From NCBI GenBank assembly GCA_002269645.1, contig NIVC01000513.1, positions 434,001-498,000 of the forward strand: a stretch of DNA of 64,000 nucleotides. The letters are read 5' to 3'. Shown in pieces: positions 15,881 through 23,719 of this stretch. Positions within the stretch are counted from its first letter, which is position 1, and each line of letters starts with the position of its first letter. This DNA is from Macrostomum lignano. Taxonomy: Eukaryota. Both the position numbers and the translations under genes were made by a program. Below the pieces are notes generated by a model. That model was not told the DNA's origin and did not search any database. It worked only from the letters and a program-made list of their open reading frames with translations.

Positions 15881-16123
15881 GGACATGGTAAAAAAAATTG
15901 CAGATTTTACTATGAATGCATTTTACTTTTCATTTTGCAACTAAAAACTAATTGCTGATTCAAAATTTCAATGCATTATAGCGGAAAACTTTCCCCACCC
16001 ATTTCCTTTTTTTTCTAGCTAGCTGACTATTGTTTTGGCAACCACTCGGAGGAGCGGGCATATTTTGCTGCAAAAAAGGAGAGGGCTGAGTATGAGGCTG
16101 AGCTCCATGATGAGATAGCCGAA
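15880..16123 (+). pseudogene. Intron (15888-16018) and first part of exon 2 of the MNS/Cys-rich gene, interrupted by the TIR element; exon 2 resumes at 23526-23564
   Basis: LADYCFGNHSEERAYFAAKKERAEYEAELHDEIAE plus DLNRLFPGSGLC* is colinear with the intact exon 39527-39670 (LADYCFGSPTEERAYYTAVKERRVYEADLHYETAAELDSLFPGSGLC*). Confidence 0.8.
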
Positions 16124-16338
16124 ACTACGTATCGCGACAAAACTGCCGGGTTTTCAGAATTTTGGCGCAAAAAACGCAATTTAGTCTACTATCTGAAAAT
16201 GAAGTAAGTAGTATATGAAAACGCTATCCTAAGCGTGATAGACATGGCAATATGTACTCATATATGTACATTAATCCCATGTACTGCATTAATCCCTATC
16301 TATCTCAAATTGTACATTGTCCATGTCTATCCCCAATT
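16124..16338 (+). repeat. Left TIR
   Basis: Reverse complement of 23282-23519, with scattered mismatches and one indel. Confidence 0.85.
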
Positions 16339-16484
16339 TAGCTAATCTACAGCAGCGAGAAGGCCAAACTGCAGCAGCTGCCCACAATGCGTGTCGAGTG
16401 AAAATGATTAAGACAATTGCTAAAAAACTTTTGGGTGGGTTGTATGCTTTTGTGCGAATATATGTTTGTATAATAATAACTCTA

Positions 16485-16745
16485 CTGTGCTCTGGCTCCT
16501 TCTGGCCGACTTTCATTTCCTCCAAATATCTGCATTTGGGGCAGACGCGGGTGGAGCTACAGCGCGACCGCCCATCGCCCAATTTGGCCGCGACAAAATT
16601 AACTCTCAATTGGATAATTTTTACTTGTGGGACTTTGTGGGTTGTGTGTTTGCCTTGAGTTGAGATGGGCCTGCTCGCCCCACAAAGCTGAAATAGTCGC
16701 TTCCGCAGCTGGTCGTTTTGATGCCACTCTTCTGTGCAGGATGTT
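16485..16745 (-). pseudogene. Deleted remnants: a (M)ASKRPAAEATISALWG start plus a pPolB Cys-rich piece (GRSRCSSTRVCPKC...GQKEPEH)
   Basis: 16485-16590 is homologous to 14595-14690. 16680-16735 is homologous to the MASKRSAAEAAISALWG start at 36700-36745. Confidence 0.65.
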
Positions 16746-17074
16746 GATGCTGATTAAGTCTTAATTGTATAATTTTTACTTGTGGGAATTTGTTTCTGTG
16801 TTATATCAACTCTTATAATGTGAAAGTGAAAACCATCTTTTTGAATTGAATAAACCGGCACTGATAATAACATCTCTGAAATTAAAAAAATGGTTTTATT
16901 TCATTTGTTTTTAAAATTGAAATAACCTATACTCTGAAATTTTATTATTAAAACCGGCATAGCTCGCTGTTGAGTCAGACTAACTCGCTGGCTGGGGGGG
17001 GGGCTGGGTTGGGGTTTGGGCACGGACAGCAGACTGGCTTGCTTGCTTGGTTGCTTGCTTGCAGGCTGGCGGAG

Positions 17075-17113
17075 CCAATGGGAGGCCTCACAAAATCACT
17101 ACATGTATAAAAA
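17075..17113 (+). promoter_or_regulatory. CCAAT plus TATA promoter of the MNS-gene (also at 6164-6195 and 38699-38730)
   Basis: ggagccaat..tataaaa has similar spacing in three copies and lies about 60-75 bp upstream of a conserved ATG-AA(T/C)-AGC. Confidence 0.65.
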
Positions 17114-17462
17114 CGAAACCCCTGCAGCGCGACTGAAAATCTTTTCAATTTGAAAATTTGCGATCGAACATACACCAGCACACATGAATAGCGGCAACGG
17201 CAGCAGCAGCAGCAGCAGCAGCAGTTTAGAAGTGCCGACACAGTTTGTTGCGGCGGCGGTGGCGCTACGTTGCGGCCGATCTCCCTCAATCTTGTGGTAC
17301 GGGGTTGGGGGTGGTCGAGTAGGCCGGAACCCGCCTCGCTCCACTGCCTAACTAGTTTTAAACGCATCAACAACCATCAGGAACAATTCTGGCCTCGATA
17401 ACAACGGTGGTAACAACGGCAGCAACAGCAGCAACAGCAGTAGCGGCAGCAGCAGCACCACC

Positions 17463-21400: not shown

Positions 21401-22996
21401 CCACGAACGTTGTGCTTCAAGGGCAGACGATGCAATGGGTTGAGCAGCCCAAGTTGCTCGGGCTTACGTTTGACAGACAGCTGAGGTTCACAGCGCACGC
21501 TGACAATGTGATCCACAGCTGCCGGAACCGCCTCAACCTAATGCGGCGCCTCGCGGGCAGCTCCTGGGGCTGGCAGGCCGAGCTGATCCGCAACACCTAC
21601 GTTGCCCTCATCCGGAGCAAGATGCTGTAGGGGGCCTGCGCCTGGATGCCGTGGCTCACTTGCGCGGCCTGGCGTAAGCTCGAAGTGGTGCAGCACAGCG
21701 CGGAGCGCATCATTACCGGCGCGGTCGCCACCACCCCGGTTGAGGCCCTACGCTGCGAAAGCGGGATGATGTCGATCCGGGAGCAGAGCGAGGTGATATG
21801 GAGCGCAAAACTGGACCGATGGCTCAGGCTCGAGCACAGCTCGCCAAGATACCGCCTCGGCACCCAGCAGACCCGGCAAAGGCTGAAGAGGCTGGGCTGG
21901 AGAGCCCAGGCCAGGAAGGGTCTCGCCAACACCGGTCTAGCCGAGTTGGCCAGGCTCGAGGACAGGTCGGACCTCCCCCCGTGGCAGAGTTGGAGAGATA
22001 ACATCAGCTTCCTCGTCTCCACCGACGATGCCAGGAAAGAGTCGCGCGCCGGAAACCTTGAGATGGCCCAAGCGAAGATCAACCAGGCCAGCCCAGACCC
22101 GGACATCACTATCTTCACGGACGGATCGGTGCGGAGGGAGGGCGGCGGCAGCGGTGCGGTCATCTATCGGAGCGGGCGTCTAACAGGAGAGCAGGTCGGA
22201 GATCAGATCAGCCTCCGGAGGGCAGCCGGGCAGCCAGCCTCCTCGCTGCAAGCCGAGCTCACCGCCCTAGAGCTAGCGGTGGAATGGCTCAGCGAGCAGC
22301 CGGCGTGGAGAACAGCGCTAATCGCATCCGACAGCAAGAGTGGGCTCCTCGTAGTGCAGGGCCGAGGCCGCAATCCGATCGCGACAAAGATCCGCCAGCT
22401 GCTCTCGAGGACCTGCCAGACCGGACGAGAGATTGCGCTCTGCTGGACGCCGGCCCACTGCGGTCTGGAAGGCAACGAGGCCGCGGACGAAGTGGCCGGT
22501 GGCGCGACGGCATTGCCGCAGGCGGAGGCCAGAGTGCTGGCGAGCGTTGTCCGCAGACGGCTGGCAGCCGTGGCGAAGGCAGCAAGCCAGAACAGCAGGC
22601 ACTGGTCGCACCGAAGATCGAAAGACACCTACGGCCACCTCGGTACGGCCAGGCACCCGGCCTACAAGAACAGGGCGGAGGCGGTTAGCTTTATTCGATT
22701 CCGCACGGGCCACTCGCTGGAGCTGAGGGCCTACTGCCGGCGGATAGGCAGAACCACCGACGCAATGTGCCCGGCGTGCGGGACCGAAGAAGAAACGGTC
22801 GAACAATCGAACATGTGAGCAGTCAGTGCCCGGCCACGGAGATCAGGCGAAGGCTGGACGGGCCCACGGAGCTGCACCACCTCAACGAGCATCCAGAGGA
22901 GGCGCTCCGGTACTGGGCCTGGTACCGTACCAAGTGGAAAGAGAACGATGCAAACTAGGATGTTCGCGCCTTCAGCGCAAACAACAACAACAACAA

Positions 22997-23010
<14 letters not shown>
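18430..23010 (+). mobile_element. Near-full-length RNase H-group (I/Ingi-like) LINE: 2xPHD, APE endonuclease, RT, RNase H, CCHC-like end; inactivated
   Basis: PHD CGKC..CAQCHRVFHRAC..WICQPC and a second PHD. APE QWNCDHF/LQESKL/AGDWNAHH/SSPDVT/SDHLPI. RT YRPVSLTS, QAGFR, FDFARAFDKV, LPQGSVLSPLLF, YADD. RNase H IFTDGSV/QAELTAL/SDSKS/GNEAAD. Frameshifts near 19585, 20070, 20330 and 22810, a stop at 21628 and a (CAA)n tail at 22980. Confidence 0.92.
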
Positions 23011-23028
<18 letters not shown>

Positions 23029-23281
23029 TTGACGACGACGATACCGATGACGACTTTCTAGGTTGGTGCGGCGGCAGCTATTGCGGCAACGAATGTTGCC
23101 AGCCTGGCAATGGCTGTGGGCTGTTGGGAGCCAGTCCCTGTGAATATGCCGCAGCCGCCGCCGCCACCGCCGCCGCAAATAATGTAGAGTCGGGCAGCAG
23201 TCTAAATCGGCAGCTGACATTTCTACTGTACATGTAGAAGTAGATTAACGTATATGTAGAAGTGTGTATAGTGTACATATA

Positions 23282-23519
23282 GAATTGGGGATAGACATGG
23301 ACAATGTACAATTTGGGATAGATAGGGATTAATGCAGTACATGGGATTAATGTACATATATGAGTACATGGATTAATGTACATATACGACCATATATTGC
23401 CATGTATATCACGTTTAGGATAGCGTTTTCATATACTACTTACTTCATTTTCAGATAGTAGTTTAATTTGCGTTTTTTGCAAACTCTGAAAACCCGGCAG
23501 TTTTGGCGCGATACGTAGT
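23282..23519 (-). repeat. Right TIR
   Basis: Ends ...CGCGATACGTAGT and is an inverted copy of 16124-16338. Confidence 0.85.
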
Positions 23520-23719
23520 GCCGAAGACTTGAACCGACTGTTCCCCGGCTCGGGGCTTTGTTAATATTGACAATTTAATGTTGTGTCTGCACGCATTTTT
23601 ATTTTCATGCACCTTGAACATATCTTGTTTTTATCAAGTGTTGTGTCTGCACTCAATTTAATTTCATGCACCTCGTAGTATATCCCAACTTGCTTATATT
23701 ATTAAAATGTTGTGTATGC

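Follow-up and report, generated by a model that had tools for sequence, protein, structure and literature searches.

We analyzed a 64,000-nucleotide stretch of the Macrostomum lignano genome (contig NIVC01000513.1, positions 434,001 to 498,000, labeled G000:C513:434001-498000 and hereafter called the window), which contains an element with terminal inverted repeats (TIRs) and ends beginning ACTAC. This element belongs to a family of Polinton/Maverick relatives whose genes are found on two different elements: P, which encodes a pPolB polymerase, and V, which encodes an integrase, capsid proteins, a protease and an ATPase. We consider it likely that the two form a bipartite Polinton/Maverick, in which P would supply replication and V would supply integration and capsids in trans, each half depending on the other.

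None of 33 polymerase queries matched in V copies (14/14 without a match), and none of 16 integrase, capsid, protease and ATPase queries matched in 19 P copies, 27 non-coding copies or the window element. Polymerase loci (n = 104) and V loci (n = 66) share a contig just 3 times, the nearest pair being 45.6 kb apart. Only one span between ACTAC ends (C271, 40.6 kb) holds both kinds of genes; here an AGTAGT-ended Polinton, flanked by a target site duplication (TSD) of its own, is nested in a P copy. The pattern occurs twice, in subfamilies A and B, each with P (PA, PB), V (VA, VB) and its own 27-nt end. An earlier reading of the window, made from its letters (hereafter the sequence-only reading), had suggested looking for 15-25 kb copies with integrase, pPolB, ATPase and capsid between these TIRs; among the copies examined there were none. 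It had also made its case depend on a link of the TIRs to pPolB or integrase. Each of the two is indeed linked to them, but in the copies examined never both between one pair of ends.

These figures bear on the possibility that P and V are deletion products of a one-piece master of ~19 kb, unassembled or recently lost. Together, P and V do match an ordinary Polinton in gene content and length, repeats get lost in draft assemblies, and our sampling was partial. However, no linked copy was found among 104 polymerase and 56 integrase loci. A and B are both split while their polymerases are 66% and their capsids 85% identical, and a split common to A and B must predate their divergence. PA and PB also agree in the positions of their three introns, with none seen in V frames. 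We regard such a master as very improbable.

The window element spans positions 16124-23519 (7,396 bp; first bases ACTACGTATCGCG, last bases CGCGATACGTAGT). Its features and those of its insertion target, in window positions, are as follows.

14181..15874, plus strand: 5' half of a P-type pPolB gene in the target copy (PF03175, E=3.7e-11; 90% to P copies)
15878..16123, plus strand: interrupted small P accessory gene, part 5' of the insertion (alignment to P copies and to the paralog)
16118..16123, plus strand: left TSD copy, GCCGAA (sequence and table of copies)
16124..16338, plus strand: left TIR with subfamily-A end 5'-ACTACGTA, its first 27 nt 1-2 mismatches from the end of a VA (integrase-capsid) element
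16335..17361, minus strand: rearranged P pieces, namely the end of a PC4-like gene, a 95-bp inverted pPolB fragment (16486-16580) and accessory region (blastn, tblastn)
17362..22973, edges approximate, plus strand: nested long interspersed nuclear element (LINE) DNA with a CAA-rich tail (Pfam and gap in P homology)
22974..23212, minus strand: P accessory region, colinear on both sides of the LINE (alignment to P copies)
23283..23519, minus strand: right TIR, end CGATACGTAGT (self-alignment)
23520..23525, plus strand: right TSD copy, GCCGAA (sequence)
23526..23652, plus strand: remainder of the interrupted accessory gene and 3' flank (flank alignment to the paralog)

The sequence-only reading had described a TIR element with ACTAC ends, a perfect 6-bp GCCGAA TSD and TIRs of ~215-240 bp, interrupting a gene from the element's own family, and all of this was borne out. 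Both TSD copies flank the 7,396-bp span, and the TIRs align over 215/237 bp at 82.6% identity. The flanks, aligned separately to an uninterrupted paralog, match it at 39519-39629 (left) and 39626-39755 (right), the two alignments overlapping at its single GCCGCA site. The reading frame of the left flank runs ...LHDEIAE and that of the right flank AEDLNRLFPGSGLC up to a stop, as compared with ...LHYETAAELDSLFPGSGLC and a stop in the paralog. The insertion target is itself a rearranged P copy, in which half a pPolB gene is joined to the small accessory gene. The same reading had seen no intact pol or integrase inside, and we likewise found just the 95-bp pPolB fragment within a patchwork that matches the P left arm (16335..17361 is 76-95% identical to the natural P copies C1263 and C157 by blastn). 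Homology to P elements ends at 17361 and restarts at 22980. Between these points lies the LINE, which the sequence-only reading had not recorded; it comprises an RNase H fragment (17352-18131) followed by PHD/C1, APE, reverse transcriptase and RNase H domains (18185-22818, Pfam), and no target duplication was found for it except a 7-nt CAA repeat. Since the LINE takes up ~5.6 kb, the element proper measures only ~1.8 kb, and it is a deletion derivative of P, the polymerase half. A-type TIRs also carry an inner TATACTACT...AGTAGTATA pair, located in the window in the region of 16187-16215.

The ends of the window element are widespread in the genome. A 20-mer from its TIR had 80 forward and 80 reverse exact matches and a control pattern had 0, which argues that the family is not due to chance; 100 of the 160 A-end matches were listed. 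Similarly, the B end consensus ACTACTA(A/T)GG had 39 and 41 matches (control 0). All 30 ends read from a blast search with the terminal 120 bp (40 of 210 candidates scored) begin ACTACGTA. Among 61 tabulated two-ended copies, 58 have a TSD, exactly 6 bp in 55 and longer in 3 that lie in microsatellites; 3 have none, and no TSD of 2-5 bp was called. Outside the table are ten two-ended copies, with a 6-bp TSD in C200, C558, C271 and the outer C1485 element and none of 6 bp in C247, C362, C1176, C1190, C4472 and C1001. Overall, a TSD of 6 bp or longer was present in 62/71 two-ended copies. TIRs range from 64 to 1354 bp, and the base outside ACTAC was T at 33, G at 29, C at 29 and A at 19 of 110 ends.

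CACTA transposons have a fixed CACTA end and a TSD of 2-3 bp. The ACTAC end does resemble CACTA minus its first base, but the base outside it is not fixed, which speaks against CACTA; the TSD is 6 bp with none of 2-5 bp, and the interior matches P elements. For Ginger elements, 4-5 bp TSDs and TGT ends are described (PMC2836005). The tabulated ends and TSDs thus refute a CACTA or Ginger cut-and-paste transposon, to which we attach next to no probability. The sequence-only reading had proposed a genome-wide search with the terminal sequence and tabulation of TSDs, naming TSDs of 2-4 bp with an invariant CACTAC end as a contrary outcome; neither was seen, and the 6-bp TSDs together with the link of the ends to pPolB and rve agree with its placement of the element as a non-autonomous Maverick/Polinton derivative. 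Among ends picked for starting ACTAC, those of subfamily B read (ACT)2 in 40/40 and those of subfamily A ACTAC(G/A) in 80/80. Subfamily A has only an AC-x-AC repeat, its position 3 being T throughout and its position 6 either G or A. ACTAC may be a variant priming repeat, as the sequence-only reading had suggested.

A polymerase query matched 132 of 135 candidates, each of which was scored, and the matches form one group at 92-96% and another at ~67% identity; setting aside split fragments and a distant copy on C234 left the 104 polymerase loci, and 12 A and 7 B copies (19 in total) were read end to end. P elements are mostly 8.8-10.8 kb long, apart from three A copies of 12-15.5 kb with extra DNA (LINEs in two). 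They encode pPolB (PF03175, E=1e-27), a PC4-like open reading frame (ORF; E=1e-5, present in 7/7 B and 2/12 A copies at the length cut applied) and, in some A copies, a dUTPase. Exonuclease and polymerase motifs are readable in the pPolB frames. The closest named proteins (98%) are gene models of Macrostomum lignano, a laboratory animal, those of other species reaching 24-38%, and a search for exon-sized polymerase relatives returned only two named Macrostomum lignano entries. The gene is split by three GT-AG introns, at least one of which was recognized by motif in each of the 19 P copies, at the same codons in A and B. Joined forms skip 81, 74 and 78 nt. Among the joints listed (15 of 27), intron joints occur in contigs of the putative RNA runs X1 (3/3), X2 (2/3) and X5 (3/3), from two studies, and none in run X12.

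V elements came to light when 4 of 12 B-ended pairs without a polymerase match were found to hold an integrase. With V integrase and capsid as queries, two sets of 28 loci each were retrieved, one at 86-100% and the other at ~80% identity, plus 10 further capsid loci (66 V loci, 56 by integrase and 10 by capsid); 14 copies were read, and the older or distant capsid copies C1321, C621, C12 and C356 were left out of this reading. V elements mostly measure 9.6-10.7 kb, with the first B-type ones at 10.3-10.6 kb (13.9 kb with inserts). The B-type genes, all on a single strand, are Fic, several unassigned ORFs, an rve integrase (E=5.4e-10), an ORF that we take by resemblance to encode a minor capsid protein, the major capsid, the protease and the ATPase. 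A predicted model of the capsid (pLDDT 79) matched the double jelly rolls of PBCV-1, mavirus and Sputnik (E~1e-17), and the protein was closest to double-jelly-roll-like Atlas clusters (score 0.98). The protease was closest to Peptidase_C5 clusters (score 0.97), with no sequence match in PDB. The ATPase has a Walker A motif and 31-34% matches in one-piece Polintons, and no Pox_A32 match. A Pox_A32 profile search of the genome gave 0 matches in the best 150 of 375 candidates; as ATPase ORFs nevertheless exist, this search is uninformative on absence. A genome search for the rve family (best 150 of 4,300 scored) met mostly long frames of long-terminal-repeat type. The Fic-domain ORF of VB (E=4e-14) has no counterpart in the VA copies read, and VB also has a weak TBP-like ORF (E=2.5e-4, below cut-off); these VB features are at L251:647-1450 and 2991-3524.

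Both gene sets are under purifying selection. By the Nei-Gojobori method on natural pairs, the ratio of nonsynonymous to synonymous change (dN/dS) of the polymerase is 0.07 within A and 0.065 within B. Between A and B it is 0.10 for the integrase, 0.04 for the capsid and 0.04 for the ATPase; the protease within A gives 0.56, with very few changes. Capsids 78-81% identical to those of VA and VB are present, without genomic context, in ENA/Logan records (P0108-P0110). These form one clade with the VA and VB capsids (support 97/100), one-piece Polinton capsids falling outside (16 rows, long branches flagged); the V capsid lineage exists elsewhere as well. No related loci were found in viral contigs and JGI metagenomes.

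The ends tie V to P. All 10 V copies chosen by integrase match have ACTAC ends (9/10 with a 6-bp TSD), A-type in the eight from the 80% group and B-type in the two others; because these copies were chosen without regard to their ends, the link is not circular. The mean distance between 27-nt ends is 8.1 for PA-VA, 8.4 for PA-PA, 7.7 for VA-VA and ~16 for A-B, and 14/14 V ends are closer to the P ends of their own subfamily (2-7 versus 10-15 mismatches of 27). A subterminal block of ~140 bp is present in 7/12 PA, 8/8 VA and 0 B copies. End positions 9-27 vary in blocks, with 0-1 mismatches within a copy in 49/60 and ~8 of 27 between copies, and look like a shuffled end "barcode". VA positions 28-46 match PB rather than PA, and one VB copy (C150) has the same stretch at one end; this sharing suggests an exchange of ends between subfamilies or an ancestral state.

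Ordinary one-piece Polintons also occur in the genome (families C25, C781, C297 and C84). They combine an integrase, a capsid and an ATPase with a polymerase of another type in a single span, and those of their ends that could be located read 5'-AGTAGTAT. AGTAGT-ended members are inserted in P copies at G000:C4099:53185 and G000:C271:282527-314471. In these AGTAGT families, ends at G000:C716:319322, C870:164142, C164:244113 and C757:436013 contain, further in, a second and inverted copy of the terminus that finishes in ACTACTACT; an end stripped of its outer arm would begin with ACTACT, which is, speculatively, a possible origin of the ACTAC ends. A PC4-like ORF, 36% identical to that of P, lies beside a one-piece Polinton integrase at G000:C84:679207-679494. 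The only other P-like polymerase of the genome (32-36%) belongs to an old one-piece Polinton at G000:C234:57213-78017 and lacks the three introns.

That P borrows from AGTAGT Polintons was our first idea, demoted to a rival once V elements were found. In its full form, P and V are independent parasites of one-piece Polintons, with P borrowing integrase and V polymerase. Such helpers are abundant, keep open frames and make 6-bp TSDs too; their ends share the frame A-x-T-A-x with ACTAC, and they insert into P copies (C4099, C271). Against this, helper ends read 5'-AGTAGTAT, helper integrases are only 27-40% like that of V, and the helper polymerase has no tblastn match to the P type. Parasitism also leaves unexplained the single pool of end variants that P and V have in common in each of the two subfamilies, and the integrase that V maintains for itself under selection. 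We think it unlikely. Just as unlikely, in our judgment, is a one-way dependence, in which V moves by cut-and-paste or is replicated by a host polymerase, P is a self-copying satellite on V integrase and V has no need of P. Many protist endogenous elements are described as having no detectable polymerase (PMC10120064), and the left part of V has several unassigned ORFs, but no replication-type Pfam family was present in the 15 V ORFs scanned, and V, which swaps end variants with P, retains the short terminal repeat on which protein priming of P depends.

Several points weigh against the bipartite interpretation. Complementation in trans is what we infer from sequences, and with 656 candidate integrase loci, hundreds of one-piece Polintons could act as helpers. 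End-to-end reading covers 14/56 V loci and 19/104 P loci, the integrase search scored the best 150 of 1,754 candidates, the A-end listing holds 100 of 160, and the assembly may be incomplete. The RNA status of X1, X2 and X5 is a guess, none being on record as RNA. The dN/dS values come from non-independent pairs, with saturation of dS in some A-B comparisons. Duplications are lacking in 9/71 two-ended copies. The bases that directly follow the first 27-31 nt of VA ends are like those of PB (GGAGGTG.GGTGGGT) and not PA, so the pairing of A with A is not strict.

Most of the 27 non-coding ACTAC copies fold back: 22 are palindromic to 60% or more, and six of these (L031, L033, L103, L106, L110, L250) completely, at 9.36-9.89 kb. 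These six have P unit length, come from both subfamilies and have at least 2 origins; fold-backs of A type are built from the PA left arm. Fold-back length may reflect packaging size. We rejected a hidden spliced integrase, as no long frame or match was found, and assembly artefacts, as most have unlike flanks and exact 6-bp TSDs. Mirrored flanks mark C362 and C1190 as possible artefacts, and L032 and L036 share one common site at different lengths.

If P and V are halves of one bipartite Polinton, a mechanism modelled on protein-primed replication in adenovirus and Polintons may be proposed. The P polymerase would prime in trans on the ACTAC ends of P, V and fold-back or deleted copies, and copying would follow by strand displacement. 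Pairing of the two ends would keep them alike within a copy, template switches would shuffle end variants between copies, and a growing strand that turns back would yield giant palindromes. Jump-back priming is a feature of protein-primed replication. The (ACT)2 of B fits a three-base jump; in A, with position 6 G/A and position 3 always T, at most AC could jump. The V integrase, the sole one found between ACTAC ends, would insert all classes of copies. The weakest step is that the V capsid may package 9-10.5 kb units, as capsid selection and the common length suggest. The window element would have been copied by P polymerase and inserted by V integrase, taking up its LINE before or after landing in the rearranged P copy. 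An animal virus with a bipartite double-stranded DNA genome that is active to this day is conceivable, if somewhat doubtful: two ~10-kb protein-primed integrated segments, each in a Polinton capsid. This would include, no more firmly, an intron-bearing polymerase segment, two end-swapping subfamilies and unit-length snap-back defective genomes.

Further P pieces are located elsewhere in the window.

10043..11811, minus strand: additional broken 3' pPolB piece of a P copy (tblastn)
36644..40978, plus strand: left arm of another P copy, TIR ending at 40978, with PC4-like gene 37200-37993, uninterrupted accessory gene 39527-39670 and dUTPase 39901-40377 (Pfam, alignment to P copies)
40979..43154, plus strand: 3' part of a P-type pPolB with introns 2 and 3, TIR ending at 43154 (Pfam, tblastn)

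The GTAGT ends at 40978 and 43154 had been pointed out by the sequence-only reading and are both present, with no partner end within the 64-kb window. An inverted repeat at 33988-37239 (462-bp arms, 97% alike) is made of P pieces, including pPolB 35537-36208. Fragments of piggyBac-type transposase (PF13843, PF13842) occupy 2851-3647 and 23835-25920 together with another LINE, which lies on the minus strand, and tandem arrays with periods of ~24-66 bp are found at 45112-46505, 51072-56206, 59404-59846 and 61677-63209.

In many respects the P/V system resembles Polintons/Mavericks (Eupolintoviridae with Alpha-type PF03175 pPolB): a 6-bp TSD, TIRs of a few hundred bp to 1.4 kb, a short terminal repeat, and a gene set of pPolB (in P only) and rve integrase, double jelly-roll capsid, minor capsid, adenain-like protease and packaging-type ATPase (in V only). 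Polinton pPolB is described as carrying terminal protein and OTU domains (PMC11161782). Unlike in Polintons, the genes of the P/V system lie on two ~10-kb elements and not on one of 12.7-24.6 kb, its polymerase has spliced introns, and its ends are 5'-ACTAC(G/A/T) and not (AGT)2, (AG)3 or (AC)3A. The latter three ends are given for vertebrate Mavericks, whose intact copies are described as 12.7-24.6 kb long and intronless, with the two modules united in a single element (PMC8097293). A Polinton is by definition an element that has a polymerase as well as an integrase. Polintons are described as 13-25 kb long and as being sought by all genes within 20 kb (PMC10748475; PMC6431247; PMC8502044). 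The P/V system works like a Polinton, yet it is neither one element nor intronless. Because pipelines require the genes in one ~20-kb span, an element in two parts would pass for decayed remnants and be overlooked. The introns reported in Polinton-like elements are introner insertions in dinoflagellates (PMC12166617). We found no two-part Polinton in the literature, with Repbase and supplements outside the search, so a prior mention is possible; one preprint notes Polinton-like insertions in a flatworm, without detail in the text available.

The fold-backs are similar to viral snap-back defective genomes, in that whole-length palindromes consist of a terminal arm and its reverse complement, a resemblance in the accounts available; here they are DNA, integrated and flanked by 6-bp TSDs. 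Transpovirons and polymerase-less Polinton-like viruses and virophages also have one module without the other and depend on a partner, as described (PMC11161782, PMC10120064). They rely on unrelated giant viruses, whereas P and V would be halves of one Polinton, with common ends and both under selection. If the halves do complement each other, nature would offer here an example of a DNA virus or transposon that passed from one piece to two, a path modelled for RNA viruses (PMC10223652) and described in animals mainly for bidensoviruses (PMC5094692). Capsid selection in an element unable to copy itself bears on the open question of whether Polintons make particles. Bombyx mori bidensovirus (Bidnaviridae), the sole bipartite pPolB virus met in our literature search, is described as having two linear TIR-bearing segments, one with a Polinton-derived pPolB (PMC4061559). 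According to the same accounts, Bidnaviridae are single-stranded, carry a parvovirus-type capsid on the polymerase segment, lack an integrase and are not integrated (PMC4061559; PMC5094692), whereas here the capsid is of double jelly-roll Polinton type, it lies on the element without the polymerase, and both elements integrate.

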